From the IMG/VR virus record IMGVR_UViG_2541047856_000006: 37,164 nucleotides of DNA; one strand, given 5' to 3'. The position numbers and the translations under genes are program-made. Numbering within the stretch: the first letter of the stretch is position 1; every line of letters starts with the position of its first letter. A model generated the notes under the pieces. That model made no database searches. It was not told where the DNA came from and worked only from the letters and a program-made list of their open reading frames with translations. Below, piece after piece: positions 3,725-36,377 of this stretch. This DNA is from a virus. Its lineage: Duplodnaviria > Heunggongvirae > Uroviricota > Caudoviricetes.

Positions 3725-3810
3725 CCGCGCAAATAAGACCCTAGGTTAAATAAGAAAATGTGAAAACAATCCGCATTCGCGGAGGTATTCGCACACGCCA
3801 AGGAGGCGTA

Positions 3811-4014
3811 ATGGCAATTAAGCATTTTCCTGTCGTTCGTTTCACTTCCAGAGGACGTGAATACGAAGTCGACGAACGCCTGATTACCACAATCGACAAA
3901 CACCGCTCAGAAAAGGATGCACACCACATCTATCTCACTGACGGTACTTACTTCTGCGCCACTAATGTGGCGCGGGTGAATCTTATCCGACAGGTACAGG
4001 ATCCACGTAAATGA
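3811..4014 (+). CDS. Hypothetical early-region protein
   Basis: ORF frame 3760..4014; the ATG at 3811 is preceded by AAGGAGG. Confidence 0.5.
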   Translation: MAIKHFPVVRFTSRGREYEVDERLITTIDKHRSEKDAHHIYLTDGTYFCATNVARVNLIRQVQDPRK

Positions 4015-4229
4015 GCAGGAGAAGAATCACTCGCAGACATCACCGCACACACCTGAATTCCTCAGCAACGCTAAAGGCACTTATTCAAAGCGAGATCGGT
4101 GATTTCTTCGCGGGAGTTGGCTCACCAGGTGAACCAGAAACACCAGAAGCGATGCAGCGTGAGCTCATGATACGCATAGATAACACTTTTGATTTCTTCT
4201 ACAGCATGCACGGAATTAAACAGAAATGA
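4011..4229 (+). CDS. Hypothetical early-region protein
   Basis: 72 aa; start overlaps the previous stop. Confidence 0.45.
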   Translation: MSRRRITRRHHRTHLNSSATLKALIQSEIGDFFAGVGSPGEPETPEAMQRELMIRIDNTFDFFYSMHGIKQK

Positions 4230-4337: not shown

Positions 4338-4727
4338 ATGATTGACGCTCATGACTTCACAAGATGGGTGCGCACACAGGACACCCGTCTGGCTCCCATT
4401 CTTCAGGGATTATTTGATCTCTACATCCGTGGTCGTGACAACAGAGCACGCACCACAAAACCGGAGAATGCGGACACCCTTTATTTCACAGTAGACGACT
4501 GCTACCGCGTGGATTTCACACCACACGGGCTGGCGTTGCACTGCCTGACACCACACGGCGAATCACTGCTGGCGTATTACGACTCCCCGGCCTCCGTATT
4601 TGCGGCAATGCTGGCGCATCGCACTGCTGGCGGGTGTGCCTCGCTGAGTGAATACACCGCTGAATTTAACCGCCTTTCCGCCATCTTCTCGCAGGAGTGG
4701 CAGCGCGTGACGGGATACCAGCCATGA
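4338..4727 (+). CDS. Hypothetical protein immediately upstream of A (position of P2 B; homology not established)
   Basis: 129 aa; its stop overlaps the A start (ATGA). Confidence 0.5.
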   Translation: MIDAHDFTRWVRTQDTRLAPILQGLFDLYIRGRDNRARTTKPENADTLYFTVDDCYRVDFTPHGLALHCLTPHGESLLAYYDSPASVFAAMLAHRTAGGCASLSEYTAEFNRLSAIFSQEWQRVTGYQP

Positions 4728-7549
4728 GTGAGTTTGCATGGAGCTGGAATGAACCACGGCCAGCCATTGATCCGGCCAGATTTACGGAGCGCAGGCAGGA
4801 AACTGAAACCGACCTGCAACGCGCCATCCGTTACTACCTTGAGGCGGACAAAAGGGCACAGGAAGAACAGGAAGCGAAGGAAGAAGCCTTTTTCGCACAA
4901 TCCTCCATGGGTAAAAAACTCATGGCATCCCTTGAGGAAGCCGGACAGCGTGAAAAGCTGGCACAGAGCATCATCAGTAAGCGCCGGGCAACAGAACAAG
5001 ACCCGGTAGCCCGTGCCTTTGCCACACTAAAGGCACTACCTGTTTATCTGCGTGAACCACTGAGCCGCCACCTCTCTTTCCTGCGCAAAAAACAGGAAGC
5101 CGATCGCCAGAAAGGCAAAAAGAGCTGGCAGGCGGAACGCTATGCACGCGGAACCCTGCGCAAAATATTCGAACGTCTGGATCGCACTGACGGACGCTGG
5201 CTGACACCGGGTTATCGCTCCCTTGCCGGGCGCGAACGCCTGGACGATTTGCTTTACCTGCCGCAGCTCAACAAGCACCAGATACAGACGCTGGCCACCA
5301 TGACCGCGGCGATGTTCAGCAGCACCTTCGAAACACTCTGCGATGGCTTTGGTGCCAGAGATGGCGAGCTGACCATGGATGTAATGTTGAAGGCTTACCG
5401 GATGCTGGCTCGTATCGCATTACGCCTGCACATCATGCCGCCACATTACGAAGCCCTGAACAAGAGCGAACCGGATACGGAACTGCTGCCGGGCGCAATC
5501 CTTCGCCTGACCTGTGCGGACTGGTGGAAACGCAAACTGTGGCTGTTACGTTGTGAGTGGAGAGAAGAACAACTCCGCGCCGCCTGTCTGGTTTCCAGAA
5601 AAACATCACCCTATCTGAGCCAGGACGCGTTAAGCGAGTTTCGCGCACAGCGCGAGAAAACCCGCGACTTCCTGAAGAGCTTCGAACTGGAAAACGAAGA
5701 CGGCTTCACGATTGATCTCGAGACAGTGTATTACGCGGGAGTAAGTAACCCGGTTCACCGTAAGGCAGAAATGATGGCCACCATGAAGGGACTGGAACTT
5801 CTGGCCGAAGCCCGTGGCGACAAAGCGGTGTTTCTGACTGTCACCTGCCCGTCAAAATACCACGCCACAACAGAGAACGGTCATCCGAATCCCAAATGGA
5901 ACGGGGCCACCATGCGCGACTCCAGCGATTACCTGGTTAACACCTTTTTTGCGGCGGTCCGCAAAAAACTGAACCGCGACGGCCTGCGCTGGTATGGCAT
6001 CCGCACGGTGGAGCCTCACCATGACGGCACCGTGCACTGGCATATGATGGTCTTTGCTCATCCGGAAGAAATCGACAGCATCGTGGCCATCACCCGCGAT
6101 ATTGCCATTCAGGAAGACCGCCACGAGCTGGGCAATGATATTACTCCGCGCTTTAAGGTGGAGTACGTCGACGGCTCCAAAGGCACGCCAACCAGCTACA
6201 TCGCCACCTACATCGGAAAAAACCTGGACAGCCGCGCCGTGGATGGAATCGATCCGAAAACGGGCAAACCACGCGTTGACCACGAAACCGGAAAATCAAT
6301 GGCCGAGAGCGTGGAGCGCGCCATCGGCTGGGCGCGCCTTCATCGGGTCCGCCAGTTCCAGTTCTTTGGCATCCCCTCCCGTCAGGTGTGGCGTGAACTG
6401 CGCCGCCTTGCCAGCCAGATGGCACGCAACCCGGAAGGCCCGCAACGGCTGAAGGATGACGCAATGGATGCGGTACTCGCTGCCGCCGATGCCGGGTGTT
6501 TTGCCACCTACATTGAAAAACAGGGCGGCGTACTTGTTCCACGCAAAGACTACCTGATTCGCACTGCCTACGACCTCGCAGATGAGCTGAACGATTACGG
6601 CGAACAGAGCGTACAGATTTACGGGATCTGGTCACCACTCATCGGGGAATCCTCCCGTGTGTGCACGCATCCGGATAACTGGAAGCTGGTAAGACGTAAA
6701 CCGGAAGCGGAAGACAGCGCCCGCGAAAATGGTTTTGACCTTCAGGGCGGCCCAGCCGCCCCTTGGACTCGTGGCAATAACTGTCCCCGTGTACAGGAAA
6801 CGAACAACAACGGGACAGAACAGCCGGAAGAACGGCCAGCACCGTGGCCGCAGCTCCCTGACGGCGTTGAAGTGAATGAATGGATGCGCTCACTGAAACG
6901 GCACGAACGCCGGGCGCTGATGCGTTCGCTGCGTGACAAACAGGCAAAAAACAGCAGTGATGAAATGCAGAGCTGGACACAGAGCCGCAAACAGCAGCGG
7001 CCTTTGCCTGATAACCACGAATTACTCGCTAAAGAATGGCGGGAGTCTGCTGAATCTCTCGGCCTGCATATCGGTGAACAGCAGATGCAGCACCTGTTAC
7101 GGGGCGGCAGTCTGTACGTTGACGGCAGCATCATTGCACCGCAGGGATTTGAAATTGTACGCAAACCGGATACCCGACCGGACAGCCGGATCACGCAGCT
7201 CTGGCAGCGCCTGAGCCGTAACCACGGCGTAAGCAGCACGGAGATCCGCCATAACCCGGTCGTCAGCTACCTGGAACAGCTGGGGGCATCAGACCCCGAA
7301 GCCGCCGCACGCCTGGCATTCACACTTCAGCAGGACCAGAACACCATGAAAACACCCGTTACCGTGCTTTCTGACATGCTGCGCGCCATCCGCGACGCAG
7401 AGCACGCACAGAGAATCAGTGAAACCACTGAACGCGCCCGCCGCAAAGCAGACCTGCTGCGGGGTGGCCTGACCAGTGGAAACAAAAAACAGACAGAAAC
7501 GGGATTCACAAATCCCGTAAATGAGCAAAAAACGCGCCGCGATATATGA
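4724..7549 (+). CDS. A: Rolling-circle replication endonuclease (P2 gpA family)
   Basis: HUH-type motif HDGTVHWHMMVFA and paired tyrosines YIATYIGK. The ATG at 4724 overlaps the upstream stop. The C-terminal region is longer than the ~760 aa remembered for P2 A. Confidence 0.93.
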   Translation: MSEFAWSWNEPRPAIDPARFTERRQETETDLQRAIRYYLEADKRAQEEQEAKEEAFFAQSSMGKKLMASLEEAGQREKLAQSIISKRRATEQDPVARAFATLKALPVYLREPLSRHLSFLRKKQEADRQKGKKSWQAERYARGTLRKIFERLDRTDGRWLTPGYRSLAGRERLDDLLYLPQLNKHQIQTLATMTAAMFSSTFETLCDGFGARDGELTMDVMLKAYRMLARIALRLHIMPPHYEALNKSEPDTELLPGAILRLTCADWWKRKLWLLRCEWREEQLRAACLVSRKTSPYLSQDALSEFRAQREKTRDFLKSFELENEDGFTIDLETVYYAGVSNPVHRKAEMMATMKGLELLAEARGDKAVFLTVTCPSKYHATTENGHPNPKWNGATMRDSSDYLVNTFFAAVRKKLNRDGLRWYGIRTVEPHHDGTVHWHMMVFAHPEEIDSIVAITRDIAIQEDRHELGNDITPRFKVEYVDGSKGTPTSYIATYIGKNLDSRAVDGIDPKTGKPRVDHETGKSMAESVERAIGWARLHRVRQFQFFGIPSRQVWRELRRLASQMARNPEGPQRLKDDAMDAVLAAADAGCFATYIEKQGGVLVPRKDYLIRTAYDLADELNDYGEQSVQIYGIWSPLIGESSRVCTHPDNWKLVRRKPEAEDSARENGFDLQGGPAAPWTRGNNCPRVQETNNNGTEQPEERPAPWPQLPDGVEVNEWMRSLKRHERRALMRSLRDKQAKNSSDEMQSWTQSRKQQRPLPDNHELLAKEWRESAESLGLHIGEQQMQHLLRGGSLYVDGSIIAPQGFEIVRKPDTRPDSRITQLWQRLSRNHGVSSTEIRHNPVVSYLEQLGASDPEAAARLAFTLQQDQNTMKTPVTVLSDMLRAIRDAEHAQRISETTERARRKADLLRGGLTSGNKKQTETGFTNPVNEQKTRRDI
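7496..7521. promoter_or_regulatory. Palindromic element 1 (ACGGGATT-caca-AATCCCGT)
   Basis: 8-bp perfect inverted repeat at 7499..7518 with AAA flanks, inside the 3' end of A. A near-identical copy lies 73 bp downstream. Confidence 0.5.
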
Positions 7550-7568
7550 AGCGCGCATAAAACAGGCA

Positions 7569-7594
7569 AAAACGGGATTTCAGAATCCCGTAAA
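7569..7594. promoter_or_regulatory. Palindromic element 2 (ACGGGATT-tcag-AATCCCGT), putative ParR-binding centromere/operator
   Basis: Same 8-bp stem at 7572..7591, ~35 bp upstream of parM. The pair flanks an AT-rich GATATAT segment. Confidence 0.5.
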
Positions 7595-7625
7595 CGATTA
7601 ATTAATCAACATAAGGAAAAGCGAC

Positions 7626-8585
7626 ATGAAAATTTGTATCGATGACGGCTCCACCAACATCAAGCTGGCATGGACTGAGAACGGCGAACGCCGCAACGCC
7701 ATCAGCCCGAACAGCTTCAAGTCGGAATGGTCTGCGCCGTTCGGTGGCACGCAGCCCGCGAACTACATGCTTGATGGCGTGCGCTATGGTTTTGATCCGG
7801 TCAGCGATCGCTTTGTCCAGACGACCGACACGCAATACCAGTACAGCGATGTGAATGTCATTGCCATTCATCACGCGCTGGTCAAATCAGGCATCACACC
7901 ACAGGAAGTGGATGTGGTTGTCACCCTGCCACTGAGCGAGTATTTCGACACAAACGCACAGCCGGACATGGCCAACATCAACCGCAAAAAAGCAAACGTC
8001 ATGCGCCCGGTGGCGTACCAGAACGGAAAAGCATTCACTATCCGTAACGTACGGGTTATGCCTGAATCCATTCCGGCTGGTTTTAAAGCACTGGCTGACA
8101 TGAGTCCGTTTGAATCCCTGCTGATTGTGGATTTAGGCGGAACCACGCTGGATGTGGCAAAGGTTCAGGGGCAACTGGCAGGTATCAGCCAGGTGTTTTG
8201 CGATCCACACGTAGGCGTTTCTCTGATGGCCAATGCCGTACTGTCGGTGATGGCCACTAACGGTATGCGCACCAGTCACCACATCGCCAATACCATTATC
8301 GAACATCGCCATGATGAAGCCTGGCTGCGCCAGCACATCCACAATGACGCGCATTACGCCAGCCTGATGGCGGTTATTCGTGAAAAGGAAGAAACACTGA
8401 AACAACGCGTGATCCGCGCGCTGGCGGGTTTTTCGGGTTACGGGCGGGTGATGGTTGTCGGTGGCGGGGCGGAGATTGTGGCACCCGCTATCCGCGAAGC
8501 CTGCGGAGTTAATGCGACTTTCATCGCGGACGGGGTGCCACAGTTTGCTCTGGTTAATGGGCTGTACGCAATGGACAAGGAGTAA
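7626..8585 (+). CDS. parM: Actin-like segregation ATPase ParM/StbA
   Basis: N-terminus MKICIDDGSTNIKLAW...ISPNSFKSEW...YSDVNVIAIHHALVKSGI closely matches the remembered plasmid R1 ParM; DLGGTT and VVGGGA phosphate-binding motifs present. Confidence 0.88.
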   Translation: MKICIDDGSTNIKLAWTENGERRNAISPNSFKSEWSAPFGGTQPANYMLDGVRYGFDPVSDRFVQTTDTQYQYSDVNVIAIHHALVKSGITPQEVDVVVTLPLSEYFDTNAQPDMANINRKKANVMRPVAYQNGKAFTIRNVRVMPESIPAGFKALADMSPFESLLIVDLGGTTLDVAKVQGQLAGISQVFCDPHVGVSLMANAVLSVMATNGMRTSHHIANTIIEHRHDEAWLRQHIHNDAHYASLMAVIREKEETLKQRVIRALAGFSGYGRVMVVGGGAEIVAPAIREACGVNATFIADGVPQFALVNGLYAMDKE

Positions 8586-8589
8586 ACCA

Positions 8590-8901
8590 ATGACGACACC
8601 AACCAGACGGATAAGTTTCTATCTGAAGCCCGCCGCCGTCAAGAACGAAGGCGAAGCATGCGCATGGCTGGACAGCCTTACACCAGAAGCCCGCAAAAGC
8701 GGCCAACGCGTGGCTTTTCTGGCCGGGCTGGCACTTCTGAAAATGAATCCGGCAGAGGCTTACCGACTGGCTGCATGGGCTGACGATGAGACGTTATCAG
8801 TGACACAAACCAGGACAGAACGCCCCGAGTCACAGCCAGTACCAACCGCACAGATAACCAGTCAGATGGCCGGAAATATCAGGGCGTTATTTCCTGAATA
8901 A
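8590..8901 (+). CDS. parR: ParR/StbB-like centromere-binding adaptor
   Basis: 103 aa directly after parM; MTTPTRRISFYLKP...AFLAGLALLK resembles the remembered R1 ParR N-terminal ribbon-helix-helix region. Confidence 0.65.
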   Translation: MTTPTRRISFYLKPAAVKNEGEACAWLDSLTPEARKSGQRVAFLAGLALLKMNPAEAYRLAAWADDETLSVTQTRTERPESQPVPTAQITSQMAGNIRALFPE

Positions 8902-8964
8902 CACAACATCAGGGCGAGTTCGCCCTGCTCTCCACCTCAGAACATAAACAAGGAGAACGACATA

Positions 8965-9489
8965 ATGAGCGAAATCAACTATCAGGCATTACGTGAGGCA
9001 GCACAAAACTATCAATCGACGCTGGCGTGGTATGAGGCCATCGCGGATAACCCAAATGCTGAGCAGGATTGTAACGAAGCAGTGGCGGCGTTTAAGCGTC
9101 AAATCCGTCATCAGGAAATGGACATTATCGCCGAGCTGCTGGAAGAACTGGAAACCAAAGACAACAGGATCGCTGAACTGGAAAAAATCGCCACTGACCA
9201 TGCACTTAAATTCCAGAAAGCACAGGACGCATTAAAGCATACCGCTTTGCTGCATAGCCGGACGGCGCAACAAACAAATAATTTTGCAGTATCGCTTCCG
9301 GACATAAGCGAATATTTCATTAATGACGTATTTCAGCCCTTGCGATACGAGCGGGATGTTGAAAGAGCCATCATAAAGGCTGGCGGAAAAGCATTGTGGC
9401 AGGAGAAACACGAGGACAGAACGCATCAGTCCTGCGATGTAAATTGTGGATGGTTTAGCCCACTGACGACAGATAAAAATAACACCTGA
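8965..9489 (+). CDS. Hypothetical coiled-coil protein
   Basis: 174 aa; good spacing from an upstream AAGGAGA; central predicted coiled coil (ELLEELETKDNRIAELEKIATDHALKFQKAQDALKH). Confidence 0.55.
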   Translation: MSEINYQALREAAQNYQSTLAWYEAIADNPNAEQDCNEAVAAFKRQIRHQEMDIIAELLEELETKDNRIAELEKIATDHALKFQKAQDALKHTALLHSRTAQQTNNFAVSLPDISEYFINDVFQPLRYERDVERAIIKAGGKALWQEKHEDRTHQSCDVNCGWFSPLTTDKNNT

Positions 9490-9501
9490 TCTCCCTCAAA
9501 C

Positions 9502-9527
9502 CAGGGCGATAATCGCGCATCGCCCTG
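9502..9527 (+). other. Stem-loop after the accessory operon (possible terminator)
   Basis: CAGGGCGAT-aatcgcgc-ATCGCCCTG, 9-bp stem; no clear T-run follows. Confidence 0.4.
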
Positions 9528-9979
9528 CTGCACAATAGTGCACAAATTTGCACAATTTTTTTGAACGACTTTTTACCCTTCAGGCCCGCATGGCGGCTGG
9601 ATCCGTCAAGGATCCGTGCATGCACAAAAAAACGCGTTTTTTCTGCGCGCAGGTGACGGGGGAACAGCCCGCGTTTCAGGGGGTAAATAGTATTCCCTGA
9701 GCGATGTCGCAGCGACATAACAGAATGGCCATATTTCTCACGCTGAGCGTGAAAAAGATGTGAGGGCTTTTGATTTGATGGGGTGAAAGGTAAGGCCGTC
9801 AAAATCGCACTGAGGCGGTGAGAACATGCAGTCAGCGCGGTGGGATTGCGTAAGAGTCTGACCGTCGATGATGGTAATAAACAGGAAAGCGTCGTGAAAT
9901 TATCTGATTGATACAGGAGCTGGAGAGTCGGGGCATAAATTTTTTATGCCCCGCCGAAGCAGCAGACAAGCGAAGCGCG
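9528..9979. other. Non-coding, palindrome-rich region; probable cos/packaging region
   Basis: ~450 bp with no credible ORF, next to portal and terminase. Contains several short palindromes (AAAAACGCGTTTTT, ATGTCGC/GCGACAT, TCACGCTGAGCGTGA) and a GGGGCATAAA-ttt-TTTATGCCCC hairpin at 9928..9950. The exact cohesive-end sequence was not identified. Confidence 0.4.
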
Positions 9980-11026
9980 TCAGGATGTGGGCTGGGTGTC
10001 TAACAGTGCGTAAGGGTTAAAGCGAATCACCTCTTCGCCAAGCCAGTCATTGATGTGCTTCATGGCCTCCATGACGGGCATCAGCTCGTTAATTGCGTAA
10101 ACCCGCGCGGCCTTCTCCACATCACCAAACGCACTTTTTTCGCCTGGCATCGCCCCCATCAGTTGCGGCGGAACGCGGTGCGCAGCCAGCACATCATCAC
10201 GGGATGCCACCTTAACATTCATGAACTCATCCTTTGCGGTGATCTGCTGGAACGGCAAAATTTGCACCCCCTCTTTGCCACCGTTGGGCGCATGAATGAG
10301 CACGTTTTTAAACGCACCACCACCACGCGCACCCTGTAGCGTTTCTTTCAGGGAGTCCATGCTTTCGCGGTTTACCTGCGCTGCACCGATGTAGATGATG
10401 CACCCGGCGTGGGATCCGTTGTCGTAATACAGTTTTCTGAACATGTCCGCCGAATGAGACAGGCTGGCCGAGAGTAATGCGCCGAGATATTCCGGCATGC
10501 CGTAGATTTCCTGGTTAATGTCAGGATTCATCAGGTGGCACACTTTGCCAGGGCGAAACTGAAACGCGTCCTTGCCATCCTGCACATACCACCATGATTC
10601 AAGATCGCTTCCGCGTCGCATGTATTTCGCCAGGGCGTGCCGTAATTTAAGCGGTTCGCCGAGCATATTGCTTCGAAGCTCAAGGAATGCGTTACCGAAC
10701 ACAAACCAGTCCAGCGCCAGCGCCGAGAAATCCTGCCGGGAAAGCAACGGGTGCGGGATGTAGCAACCGAGTAATACATTGCGCTTAAAGTAAAGCGCAG
10801 ACTGATGCCAGGACGTTTGCCGGGCAGCTCTTGCCAGACCGTACCAGTCCACCGGGGTTTCATACCACCGCCCGTTATCAGCACAGTACATATTGTCCAG
10901 CAGGTCATGCCCGGTCAGGCGATAAGGACCATCAAATGTGAATGCACTGAGCGATGATTCTTTCCTGAGCGCATCAGCGAGATCAATGCGTGAACTCATG
11001 CGCACTTTTTTATTTTTTCTGCTCAT
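9980..11026 (-). CDS. Q: Portal protein (P2 gpQ-like)
   Basis: 348 aa, directly downstream of and overlapping the large terminase; size and position match P2 Q. Confidence 0.88.
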   Translation of the reverse strand: MSRKNKKVRMSSRIDLADALRKESSLSAFTFDGPYRLTGHDLLDNMYCADNGRWYETPVDWYGLARAARQTSWHQSALYFKRNVLLGCYIPHPLLSRQDFSALALDWFVFGNAFLELRSNMLGEPLKLRHALAKYMRRGSDLESWWYVQDGKDAFQFRPGKVCHLMNPDINQEIYGMPEYLGALLSASLSHSADMFRKLYYDNGSHAGCIIYIGAAQVNRESMDSLKETLQGARGGGAFKNVLIHAPNGGKEGVQILPFQQITAKDEFMNVKVASRDDVLAAHRVPPQLMGAMPGEKSAFGDVEKAARVYAINELMPVMEAMKHINDWLGEEVIRFNPYALLDTQPTS

Positions 11027-29550: not shown

Positions 29551-30030
29551 GCCAGCTAACCACTTCGCCGGGCGTCATCATGAAGATTTCGGCGGGCGAC
29601 CAGTTAAAAATAACGGCAATATCTGCCACAAAGTCTTCTATGTGCTCAAAGCACACAACCGTGATCAGGCTTCCGTCGCCTGTTCGTTCTTCCCGCCAGA
29701 GTCCGCACCGCTCAAAAAATTTACGGCAACCACACATAACTGAATAAAGTCACGGGATGCCATTTTTTTGATCGTCACTTCATCCAGTCGCGGTGATGTC
29801 ACGCGTGACAGCAGCGTAAACATGGATTCCGCTTTCAGATTCAGCACATCAGACAGCGACAAATCTCGCAGAGATCCAGCCTGCTCAATAGCCCCGGTGA
29901 TCTCCACATACGTGATTTTTTCGCCGCCTCGCTCAATTGGTTGGGTAAGTTTTACGCCACGCTCACTGGTTTCTTTCACAGTGTCAGCAACTACCGTGTT
30001 TTCGGTATCGATGTTTTTCGTCTCTTTCAT
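29501..30030 (-). CDS. Tail assembly chaperone fusion E+E' made by -1 programmed frameshift
   Basis: The E frame (29665..30030) and the overlapping -1 frame (to 29501) meet at the slippery heptamer TTTTTTG (minus strand; plus-strand coordinates 29713..29719). Confidence 0.6.
29665..30030 (-). CDS. E: Tail assembly chaperone (gpE-like)
   Basis: 121 aa between the tail tube and tape measure genes, the conserved position of E. Confidence 0.7.
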   Translation of the reverse strand: MKETKNIDTENTVVADTVKETSERGVKLTQPIERGGEKITYVEITGAIEQAGSLRDLSLSDVLNLKAESMFTLLSRVTSPRLDEVTIKKMASRDFIQLCVVAVNFLSGADSGGKNEQATEA

Positions 30031-33258: not shown

Positions 33259-36057
33259 CTAAATCTCAGCAATCTTTTTTTTACTGTGCTGTTCTATTAT
33301 CCACTCTGCTTCCGCTTGGTATTCATGAGCTAACTCTCGAAGAATTCGGGCAAATCGATGAAAGCCTAGAAGTTCCATTGCATCAGACTTAGTATGATAT
33401 TGTTGGGCCAACTCCAATTCCGGTTTACCTTCAGGGTCAACAATGTAGACACCACGCGAATTTATTACCGCATTCTTATAACCAGTACGCACTTTATCAA
33501 GTTCACGTCTATTCAAAAACTCGGCCAGTTCTGGAAGTATCCAATGCTCGTCATTTGCAGGGCTAAAAATTAATATGCTTCCAATTCTATGATAAGCAAA
33601 ATCTAAATGGCCTGACTTTTCGCATTCTGTTTGAACAAAATCAAACCAGTTATTAAACGCATTGGCATCAAACTTGCCTTCAGCATCAACACCCGGAATC
33701 TTTTTCCAATCATCAAGTAAATAGCGTGAGTTTTTGGCAATATTTATTTCACTTTCAGATAGTTCTTTACTTGCTTTTTGAAATTCTGATCGATACGCAT
33801 ATTGAATGACTTCACAAAAAAAACTGGGTTCACTTGCTAGTTTTTTCTCTAATACTTGAGGATGCAACGAATCATTGGCTCCCCTGTTAATTACAGGCAG
33901 GTATGCCCATTCAATCTTTACTAAGTCGTCATCTGAAACAGTGTTATCATTTTGAATATAATTCACAAGTTCATTAAATGAGTGAATATCAAACCGCTCA
34001 ATATTTTCTGTGGTTCTAATTGATTGCAATAGAGCAAGCACAACCTTGCTGCTATCAACTAAATTATCGATATGTAAAATTCGAGATAAACAATCTATTG
34101 CCATCAAGGGACGGTCTACTTTAATCAAGCAATCTACAGCAAAATAAATTTCTTCCGTTGAATCACAGCAGTATGCATTAACATGGGTATTTTTCCAATA
34201 CTCGAAAGGAAAATCATCAAATGAAGCGTTTAATGCATCCCACGTTTCTTTTTTAAACGGTAACAAAAGAAAAAAAGCAATCTTTTCTTGAGCACTCCAG
34301 TCATTAATAACTGCCAACACCCATGATTTTCCTTCTCTGTAGTTCTTAGCCTGTACATAACCAGAAGCAAGAGAATTTTCCTTTTTAATATCACTAACAA
34401 TAAGTTTTTTCAGTATATCTAAAGGGATTTCTAGATCTTCTGCGACCAGACTACTACCAACAAACTCAGGTCTTTCAATAGAAAGAGAGAATTCTAAGAC
34501 TCCGTCAATACCATTAACAGTATATATTTCGTATATTGATTGCCCTCGTTCTTTTGTCAACCTTTCTTCTTGGTCCCGCCAGTTTCCATTTTCATCAAAT
34601 AGGAAGTAACTATTTTGTGCAAAAAGTCGTTTGCTATAAAGCATAGGATTTTCGGGCTTCAAGACTGTAGAAACATCTTTGATTTTTTCATTCTGTTCTG
34701 GTTGTATTGCCCAATAAGCACCTGAGAATCTTTTGTTTTTGTTATAAACTTCTAAACATTTTTCCCACACCGCCAACTTCAATTCAGCACTATCTGTTTT
34801 TTTAGAAAAATCATACAATAATTTAATTGCATCATCGAATTTAAATGGCGCTAAACTACCAATATTTTCAACTAAATCAACAAGTCTTAATGATGATTTA
34901 CTTGCCAATTCAATTGTTAATTGAGTGTATCTTTCAATCTGAGTACGACACTCATCATCCGATGGCCTTTTATTAAAACCGTTAGGAATAAAGTTTCTAA
35001 AAGTTGGAATATGTGTGCCAGATGTTACTTGCGTGTTGTTGGGTAACAACTGAACTAAAACACGCCATGCTGTATCGGGCCACTCCCTTGCCAATGCTTT
35101 GAAAGCAGCAATACGTCTATCTATATCAGCTGTAGTATGAGGAAGCCATGGTAACAATATGTTGATTATCGAGTTAAGTGGCCTGTTAGCCCAATTGCCA
35201 CCAGGATCATGGCTATCCAGCTCCCCTAATATTACTAAAGAGCGAGATAAATAGTTAGGCGCCCAAGCTAATCCTTCAATAGCCCATAGCAGTCCTGTCA
35301 TATAATTCCGACCTGAAATTCCACCGATACCTTCCTGTGCAAAAAGTGAATCAAATGGCTTGTCTTGGTGAGATGCAGCATTTTCCACTTCGTCGATAAA
35401 ACAGTCAGGAGCACTTTCCGCAAGCATAACTTGAATATCTTGCGTACTAGCCCATAATTGCCAGCTAGAAGCCGAAAAAACCTCTTTAACCACACTTGAG
35501 GCGCAATATTGCCCTTTATATTTTGAGCAATTAGTAAGTAACTCTTGCTTTGTTGCAACTAATGCCAACCCTTCGGATAGTCCTTTCCTTATTAATCGGC
35601 TATGTGGTAAAACCTTCCCATAAATTACTGCTGCATAACGCTCTTCAGGTGCCAGTTCAAATTGTGGGTCGATTGTTTTAAAAACGGATACAACAGTCGT
35701 CCGAAACAAATCCAAATGATCATCGAATAATCTTGACGATACCGTTTGAAATGTTTGTATTCTATCTTTAAAACTCCAAGAACCTCTCTCATGAATCAAA
35801 GGACTATCTTGCATCCCTTCAATTATTCTTATTTTTCGAATCCAACTGTCATATGACTCGCCAATAAGGCTTGTAATTATATTAATATCACCATTATTTT
35901 TTTCATCCCAGCAACCGACTAAAACAGCAATCGCTAACTCAGTCGCATAATCAACATTATCAATATTGTATATAGTTAAGTTACCAGCAACATTATGGCC
36001 TGTTCCGGCATGATTTTGACTAACTGAACTGCAGCTATGAATGTTATCCATAGACAC
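33259..36057 (-). CDS. Large hypothetical protein (932 aa) in an AT-rich island; function unknown
   Basis: Long uninterrupted ORF, AT-rich and clearly different in composition from the flanking phage genes. No Walker A, helicase or recognisable nuclease motif was seen by eye. GTG/ATG start coupled to the stop of the upstream small gene. Confidence 0.65.
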   Translation of the reverse strand: MSMDNIHSCSSVSQNHAGTGHNVAGNLTIYNIDNVDYATELAIAVLVGCWDEKNNGDINIITSLIGESYDSWIRKIRIIEGMQDSPLIHERGSWSFKDRIQTFQTVSSRLFDDHLDLFRTTVVSVFKTIDPQFELAPEERYAAVIYGKVLPHSRLIRKGLSEGLALVATKQELLTNCSKYKGQYCASSVVKEVFSASSWQLWASTQDIQVMLAESAPDCFIDEVENAASHQDKPFDSLFAQEGIGGISGRNYMTGLLWAIEGLAWAPNYLSRSLVILGELDSHDPGGNWANRPLNSIINILLPWLPHTTADIDRRIAAFKALAREWPDTAWRVLVQLLPNNTQVTSGTHIPTFRNFIPNGFNKRPSDDECRTQIERYTQLTIELASKSSLRLVDLVENIGSLAPFKFDDAIKLLYDFSKKTDSAELKLAVWEKCLEVYNKNKRFSGAYWAIQPEQNEKIKDVSTVLKPENPMLYSKRLFAQNSYFLFDENGNWRDQEERLTKERGQSIYEIYTVNGIDGVLEFSLSIERPEFVGSSLVAEDLEIPLDILKKLIVSDIKKENSLASGYVQAKNYREGKSWVLAVINDWSAQEKIAFFLLLPFKKETWDALNASFDDFPFEYWKNTHVNAYCCDSTEEIYFAVDCLIKVDRPLMAIDCLSRILHIDNLVDSSKVVLALLQSIRTTENIERFDIHSFNELVNYIQNDNTVSDDDLVKIEWAYLPVINRGANDSLHPQVLEKKLASEPSFFCEVIQYAYRSEFQKASKELSESEINIAKNSRYLLDDWKKIPGVDAEGKFDANAFNNWFDFVQTECEKSGHLDFAYHRIGSILIFSPANDEHWILPELAEFLNRRELDKVRTGYKNAVINSRGVYIVDPEGKPELELAQQYHTKSDAMELLGFHRFARILRELAHEYQAEAEWIIEQHSKKKIAEI

Positions 36058-36377
36058 TACCTCGTAATTTTATTTCCACCAATATTATCACCAGTGCCAC
36101 TATGGTTTTGAATAATGACAGTTGTTGCATGAGGTTTTATAGACGAGAGTATTTTTTGAATTTCACTACTATCCAATAGTTTTCTTTCAATTGCTATTTC
36201 ACTCATTTCATCGTTCAAAGACAGTTTTTCAAGTTCTTTAGCTAAAGCAGGGGCCACAGCCTCATCAACAACCCAATTTTTTAACTTTGCTTTTATTGAA
36301 GTTGCAGTAATCGAAACATGATGTTTGAGCATGTCATAAACTATGCCAGAAAGTATCGTCGAAGATAAAAAATCCAT
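36057..36377 (-). CDS. Small hypothetical protein (106 aa), first gene of the island operon
   Basis: Same strand and composition as the 932-aa gene; its C-terminus (IIQNHSGTGDNIGGN) echoes the N-terminus of the large protein (SQNHAGTGHNVAGN). Confidence 0.6.
   Translation of the reverse strand: MDFLSSTILSGIVYDMLKHHVSITATSIKAKLKNWVVDEAVAPALAKELEKLSLNDEMSEIAIERKLLDSSEIQKILSSIKPHATTVIIQNHSGTGDNIGGNKITR

Follow-up and report, generated by a model that had tools for sequence, protein, structure and literature searches.

What is the purpose of two almost identical palindromes that lie on either side of the stop codon of a phage replication gene, just ahead of a partition gene? This question is raised by the IMG/VR virus record IMGVR_UViG_2541047856_000006, a stretch of 37,164 nucleotides (nt) that is analyzed here as a whole and called the window; it is a P88-like prophage of Escherichia coli (Xuanwuvirus, Peduoviridae, P2 family). 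Its replication gene gpA, the homologue of gene A of P2, is followed by parM and parR, and the answer that we favor, with moderate confidence and on comparative sequence evidence, is that the two palindromic boxes and their phasing of 73 base pairs (bp) are the cis site (parC, centromere/operator) of a phage-borne type II ParMRC module, a site read by ParR. ParMRC serves in textbooks as the minimal machine for segregating DNA, with centromeres that are described as direct-repeat arrays; in this prophage, the cis site seems to have shrunk to two symmetric boxes, one of them inside the end of the replication gene. A literature search found no paper on the ParMRC of P88.

The elements on which this answer depends are the following.

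Positions 7499-7518: box 1, ACGGGATT-CACA-AATCCCGT, with a core of GGG (7501-7503), ten bases and CCC (7514-7516), within the last 20 codons of gpA.
Positions 7572-7591: box 2, ACGGGATT-TCAG-AATCCCGT, with a core of GGG (7574-7576), ten bases and CCC (7587-7589), intergenic, 34 nt before the parM ATG.
Positions 7483-7597: proposed parC region, two 42-nt direct-repeat units with A-rich left flanks and a variable spacer.

The window reads gAAACGGGATTcacaAATCCCGTAAA at 7496-7521 and aAAACGGGATTtcagAATCCCGTAAA at 7569-7594, and each of these segments holds a perfect palindrome with 8-bp arms, the two being 73 bp apart from start to start. The original prediction of two copies at this distance is confirmed: the palindrome has exactly two matches in the window, even with up to three mismatches, where 0.10 is expected from shuffles, and two or more copies occurred in none of 100 shuffles. 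The first copy does lie within the 3′ end of gpA, whose stop codon is the TGA at 7547-7549; the second ends 31 nt before the parM ATG at 7626; and the GATATAT segment noticed between them is present at 7541-7547, where it overlaps that stop codon. The extent of the repeat had been underestimated, because each of the two copies is 42 nt long (7483-7524 and 7556-7597, 81% identity, again 73 bp from start to start). The spacer between the boxes, which contains the gpA stop, tolerates multi-base replacements in E. coli haplotypes. When only the core GGG-N10-CCC is considered, the whole window contains five sites, and one pair has the spacing of the boxes, compared with 0.007 expected. One further such site (GGGGGCATCAGACCCC, 7282-7297) precedes box 1 by exactly three times 73 bp; relatives do not keep it, and it is probably due to chance. 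The search for a known structured RNA family was negative, as Rfam gave no match at E ≤1 in 7200-7900 on either strand.

The genes around the boxes are those that had been named from the open reading frames (ORFs).

Positions 4727-7549, plus strand: gpA-like rolling-circle replication endonuclease, 940 amino acids (aa), Pfam Phage_GPA 5.5e-130, 31% identity to P2 A.
Positions 7626-8585, plus strand: parM, actin-like partition ATPase, 319 aa, Pfam StbA_N 6.9e-82 and ParM_N 2.5e-68.
Positions 8590-8901, plus strand: parR, adaptor, 103 aa, Pfam Plasmid_stab_B 5.4e-25.

These identities stand, and the annotation of the gpA-like endonuclease is shared by P88 and the E. coli records. For ParM, as the actin-like ATPase of a type II locus, residues 2-316 align with structures of R1 ParM (E=1e-92). 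The parR ORF begins 4 nt past the parM stop, as befits the small downstream adaptor; its product, with RRISFYLKP as N-terminal strand and LFPE as C-terminal tail, is the only DNA-binding protein predicted in the module by Pfam. A profile of the phage-clade ParR proteins matches pB171 ParR (PDB 2JD3) with E=2e-13, so that a ribbon-helix-helix fold is assigned by homology. With a repeated cis site directly upstream of parM, where the boxes are at -125 and -52, the locus is a ParMRC locus by the definitions tested (ParM, ParR, upstream repeats), and it is without the iteron architecture of the R1 type.

Is this layout a peculiarity of one prophage, or is it maintained elsewhere? ParM homologues were collected with their flanks from P2-like prophages of other genera, and a further Hafnia lineage was reached through a ParR profile search. 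The positions of the GGG-N10-CCC boxes relative to the parM ATG are as follows.

Window: boxes at -125 and -52.
Hafnia L003, ParM 62% identical to that of the window: boxes at -128 and -55.
Plesiomonas L006, ParM 62% identical to that of the window: boxes at -131 and -59.
Hafnia L352/L353 (second lineage), ParM 94% and ParR 74%: boxes at -124 and -51.

Across these lineages, the boxes of a pair are 72-73 bp apart, with box 1 at -124 to -131 and box 2 at -51 to -59, while their surroundings are otherwise unalignable. When the 20-mers of the window were slid over the 400 nt upstream, the box positions emerged as the top two matches; in L003 this was so for either 20-mer, and in L006 for that of box 2. 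Furthermore, among the 64 triplet palindromes tried with a 10-nt gap, only GGG yields a pair 70-75 bp apart in each locus. Scans of viral contigs with the Hafnia and Plesiomonas ParM returned nothing or one locus of the Enterobacter type, and a metagenome scan returned solely loci of the E. coli type or of the plasmid iteron type.

The coding sequence that overlaps box 1 is different from one lineage to another: it is the gpA tail TGFTNPV in E. coli, the gpA tail LAGQQKPEIA (followed by the stop) in Plesiomonas, and in Hafnia an unrelated ORF of 167 aa in another frame. Because three unrelated coding contexts overlap it, box 1 is best understood as selected as DNA and not as coding sequence, with parM as its point of reference. 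In locus L117 (IMG/VR contig 2547132279_000014, ∼3810-4000), a different C-terminal domain of gpA is joined just upstream of a box 1 that is otherwise identical, which assigns box 1 to the par module. As a separate observation, both boxes of L117 carry the same G-to-A change (ACAGGATT) with their right arms unchanged, and gene conversion from one box to the other could account for this parallel change.

Could the repeat instead be a functionless relic, left by a local duplication at the junction of the replication and par modules? Repeat copy 1 codes for the gpA tail ending in KKQTETGFTNPVNEQKTRRDI and the stop; copy 2 (7563-7600), if translated in the +1 frame, would yield QAKTGFQNPVND and a stop, close to the tail QTETGFTNPVNEQ from copy 1, as the duplication of a gene end would leave, and the arms have acquired uncompensated changes in E. 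coli haplotypes. However, layout, spacing and position persist where the surroundings cannot be aligned and the overlapping ORFs differ, the repeat covers only 42 of the 73 bp, and between E. coli and the second Hafnia lineage the centers vary while the arms GGGATT/AATCCC persist. A mere relic is thus improbable; the coding similarity of copy 2 is a by-product of the repetition at the DNA level, and it may preserve a trace of how the end of the gene was built.

The association of the boxes with the partition genes was also visible in the database. The exact palindrome, AACGGGATT-N4-AATCCCGTAA, gave at least 105 matches in IMG/VR, from at least 78 loci: 102 of these have parM within 260 nt downstream, the other 3 are at a contig end, and none of the matches listed places it in a context other than upstream of parM. 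Relatives with the same palindromes and no parMR had been named beforehand as the finding that would speak against ParR; no such case was encountered, and the C-terminal region of gpA is confined to 14 phage records, all of which have parMR. One degraded prophage, L011 of E. coli EC7518 (∼3990-4036), has lost the early region through gpA together with both boxes, with parM and parR intact, and the endpoint of this deletion is the right edge of box 2.

If the position of the boxes is maintained, is their ability to fold maintained as well? The inner bases vary, with GGGATT-CACA-AATCCC in the window, GGGACA-ACAA-AAACCC in Plesiomonas and GGGATT-GAGG-AAACCC in Hafnia, and therefore the 8-bp hairpin is not conserved. 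This bears on the possibility that the palindromes are Rho-independent terminators on the minus strand, which would stop leftward antisense transcription before gene A. In the window several features fit such a role: on the minus strand both copies have an 8-bp stem, a 4-nt loop and then a T-rich run, a consensus scan lists both as terminator-like, and the hairpins fold at about -11 kcal/mol, with z-scores against shuffles of -2.6 to -2.7 on the minus strand and -3.8 to -5.0 on the plus strand, the latter being devoid of a U-run. The relatives tell otherwise, since L003 and L006 keep only the outer GGG/CCC, their 10-nt centers are not self-complementary and the T/A run is not conserved; of their four minus-strand folds, three differ little from shuffles (z 0.3 to -1.3), and the fourth (z -2.2) owes its value to flanking GC pairs. 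Within E. coli, common uncompensated variants weaken the stem. The 1.8 kb to the right contains no minus-strand gene, as parM, parR and ead are all encoded on the plus strand; a terminator-like site in a better position is found after parR (8927-8910); and it is not apparent why two terminators should be exactly 73 bp apart at a fixed distance to the parM ATG. Both strands were folded for the window and for the loci of Hafnia and Plesiomonas, the box's own hairpin was not conserved, and the terminator was rejected as very unlikely.

Another question is whether the boxes belong to the origin from which the A protein starts rolling-circle replication, either as nick site or as accessory A-binding site. 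The original prediction had kept this alternative, as the origin of P2 lies within gene A and box 1 lies within the 3′ end of that gene. The comparison with P2 points to another place.

Positions 6752-6784, plus strand: homologue of the P2 origin nick region, CCAGCCGCCCCTTGGACTCGTGGCAATAACTGT, 25 of 33 positions identical to P2.

The P2 record annotates the nick at 29892, and the sequence there aligns with this segment of the window, which occupies the corresponding place when the two proteins are aligned. It precedes box 1 by ∼715 bp, and every relative examined (L001, L003, L006, L007, L008) has it conserved in its A gene; the end of the nick homologue (CC..CCCTTGGACTCGTGGCAATAACTGT), ...TG(G/T)CAATAACTGT, is shared by A genes from P88, Hafnia, Plesiomonas, Serratia and Enterobacter. 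This segment is probably the true origin of the prophage, as judged by homology. The boxes, for their part, hold their distance to parM and not to A: in Hafnia L003 the 167-aa ORF intervenes, L117 has another C-terminal domain in A, and the Serratia and Enterobacter relatives have related A proteins and no boxes. The origin reading of the palindromes was discarded, and it can be regarded as extremely unlikely.

How, then, would ParR use the two boxes as parC? In the mechanism proposed, ParR dimers would read the GGGAT and ATCCC half-sites via the invariant N-terminal strand, RRISFYLKP, with a dimer of dimers on each box. Arc, Mnt and MetJ, repressors of the ribbon-helix-helix class, have symmetric operators of ∼20 bp bound by a dimer of dimers; this is the geometry proposed for one box, with the difference that those proteins are plain repressors and have no role in partition. 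The boxes are seven helical turns apart and would therefore lie on the same face of the DNA, where they might cooperate to form a small ParR-DNA complex. This complex would capture the ends of ParM filaments through the conserved C-terminal LFPE tail of ParR, and it would probably throttle transcription into parM; autoregulation is the weakest part of the scheme because a consensus promoter was not found. We infer ParR binding, its stoichiometry, the operator function and the centromere activity from sequence comparison.

The variation of ParR is compatible with this scheme. P88-like prophages have two ParR alleles, which are only 54% identical overall and end in LFPE or FFPK, with the same boxes alongside. 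Both alleles have identical first 14 residues (MTTPTRRISFYLKP), and the N-terminal strand is invariant in the 220 E. coli-type loci with full-length ParR. An invariant N-terminus beside the same boxes fits the reading of the boxes by this strand, as an argument of consistency.

Would a protein other than ParR, such as a host factor or a phage regulator, serve equally well, with the boxes regulating the par genes or the end of the early operon? A symmetric site of 6+4+6 is typical of many dimeric regulators, and no characterized ParR is known with inverted repeats (PMC9426499). Such a protein would have to account for the strict co-occurrence of the boxes with parMR and for their fixed distance to parM, and ParR is the sole predicted DNA-binding protein of the module; hence, we hold this alternative to be rather unlikely. 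The box is not known to resemble the motifs of P2 Cox, C or Ogr.

Some light on the proposed ParR site comes from the plasmid systems, where known ParRs bind repeats just upstream of parM (PMC9426499; PMC2241845). In R1, parC consists of two sets of five direct 11-bp iterons that flank a promoter core of 39 bp (Dam & Gerdes 1994, summarized in PMC2241845). The present site is like it in being upstream of parM in a parM-parR operon, in having two separated units for ParR binding (putative here), in being A-rich (that of R1 is reported to be curved) and in having a closely related ParM. It differs in that the two units are inverted repeats (GGGATT-N4-AATCCC), 73 bp apart, with neither an iteron array nor a consensus promoter between them, and in that the first unit is within the coding end of a phage replication gene. 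Indeed, no tandem or iteron family was found in 7200-9200. All of the fetched ParM loci of 52% identity or less, from genomes and metagenomes, have instead clustered direct iterons of 10-11 bp on both sides of a recognizable promoter; examples are TAGTTCTCAAA or the AAACCCA type of R1, and they are clear in the plasmid-type loci L020-L065 and L327-L350 and absent from the phage clade. A precedent for a two-site parC is par1 of pB171: its ParR, a homologue, reportedly needs no more than two repeats of 10 bp upstream of parM for binding (Ringgaard et al. 2007, cited in PMC9426499). Its sites are described as direct repeats, while each of the boxes here is symmetric in itself and the site overlaps a gene. 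The proposal of a centromere or operator for ParR, originally made on the R1 paradigm, therefore fits the comparative evidence (a fixed position to parM in four lineages, and boxes that stay with parMR when the upstream gene changes), and the paradigm itself applies loosely, given that 11-bp direct iteron arrays are missing, as is a consensus promoter between or beside the boxes.

The region between box 2 and parM contains one more conserved element.

Positions 7597-7609, plus strand: ATTAATTAATCAA, an ATTAAT(C/T)AA element between box 2 and the ribosome-binding site, from an alignment of three genera.

ATTAAT(C/T)AA is conserved in the three genera (∼4969-4980 in both L003 and L006), and E. 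coli has it in duplicate, as ATTAATTAATCAA. It might act as a weak -10 element or belong to the leader, and was not called by the promoter consensus scan. By eye, a weak candidate promoter, TTCAGA-N16-ATTAAT, overlaps box 2, with a -35 that L003 and L006 do not share. It is equally possible that parM is transcribed by read-through from the early operon.

Several points weigh against a ParR-read parC. The conservation is drawn from four lineages, two of which are mutually close. A 2022 study states that every characterized ParR binds direct repeats (PMC9426499), and the boxes are inverted. Two boxes offer four half-sites, compared with the iteron arrays needed by the R1 centromere, so that the site might serve solely as an operator and fall short of a full centromere. 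As for the operator, the consensus scan of 7200-9200 found no sigma-70 promoter, which leaves autoregulation with no identified target. In E. coli, common uncompensated variants break the palindrome (7505 T/C, 7572 A/G, 7589 C/T), and polymorphism in the arms is not clearly below that in the spacer (mean minor-haplotype fraction ∼0.03 vs 0.04). Finally, P2-like prophages of Serratia and Enterobacter have parMR (ParM 54-58%) without the two-box layout.

The last two points deserve some detail. Variation within E. coli was sampled in 72 haplotypes and in the 220 loci mentioned above. The GGGA and ATCC cores are nearly invariant among E. coli-type loci, and the 4-nt centers are polymorphic: CACA, CACG, CATG, TCAG, TAAA and TGAA occur in E. 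coli and the second Hafnia lineage, with the 6-bp arms GGGATT/AATCCC kept. The 72 haplotypes and 220 loci had no compensatory pairs, and in the 220 loci box variants had no correlation with the two ParR alleles. This variation is too uniform to decide the matter, and it neither supports nor refutes a function. As for the Serratia and Enterobacter group, it shares a left-flank string, GCAAAAACGGGA, with the clade of the window, and its upstream layout (L007, L019, L008, L153) consists of a long inverted repeat, GGGAAC-N5-AGAAAAAT, ∼27 nt, and ATTTTTCT-N5-GTTCCC, along with direct TTTCATNNCCC repeats ∼33 bp apart and small GC palindromes. In two of these loci, L008 and L153, parM is not adjacent to gpA.

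The prophage that carries the boxes is a common one. Phage P88 and 13 further phage records share 95-99% identity with the stretch 7000-9600, which is also matched in 1416 of 5426 complete E. coli genomes, nearly always in the chromosome; for the 201-bp region that contains both boxes (7440-7640), a match at E ≤1e-3 was found in 1304 of the same genomes, EDL933 included. The annotation of the relatives and Pfam scans agree on the gene order, with gpA, parM, parR and an ead/Ea22-like gene, and with the portal and terminase genes on the opposite strand. The slot between parR and the portal gene (8965-9980 in the window; also L007, L008, L011, L148, L149) is a site of variable cargo that corresponds by its position to tin/old in P2; its content is ead/Ea22 in the window and, in other loci, HicAB, KAP NTPase, DUF3800, HTH+PIN or SSB. 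At 33259-36377 on the minus strand, downstream of gpD, there is a cassette of two genes, coding for a 105-aa protein with a HetE-N domain (Pfam 7.5e-38) and then for a 931-aa protein without a Pfam or PADLOC match; this cassette may be accessory or defense cargo at the prophage end. The Salmonella plasmid NZ_CP110658.1 (272 kb) encodes a ParM 99% identical to the P88 type, with two matching places in the record, and it most likely reflects a P88-like prophage inserted into the plasmid.

What would a partition site mean for a phage that integrates? A comparison is offered by AlpAC/alpS of the Corynebacterium prophage CGP3, which is reported to act on viral DNA during replication and not on a plasmid (PMC4446434, PMC5539076). 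By its description it is alike in combining an actin-like protein, a DNA-binding adaptor and a cis site in an integrated prophage, and it differs in its protein families, unrelated in detail, and in its Gram-positive host. In P88-like prophages, ParMR might use a minimal palindrome centromere on the excised or replicating phage genome, and not on a plasmid, an idea that is speculative and, on balance, unlikely. If true, the site could position rolling-circle templates or prevent the loss of excised circles at division; the location of a centromere within the end of a replication gene would let replication and partition be inherited as one unit; and a ParR that reads inverted half-sites would belong to a partition system serving a virus present in about a quarter of the complete E. 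coli genomes.

Should ParR not bind, the boxes would remain a strongly conserved and unexplained signal at the module junction of a very common prophage. Should it bind, they would provide a very small and easily engineered parC, a case of a ParR that recognizes inverted half-sites, and a handle on why an integrating phage needs a plasmid partition system.

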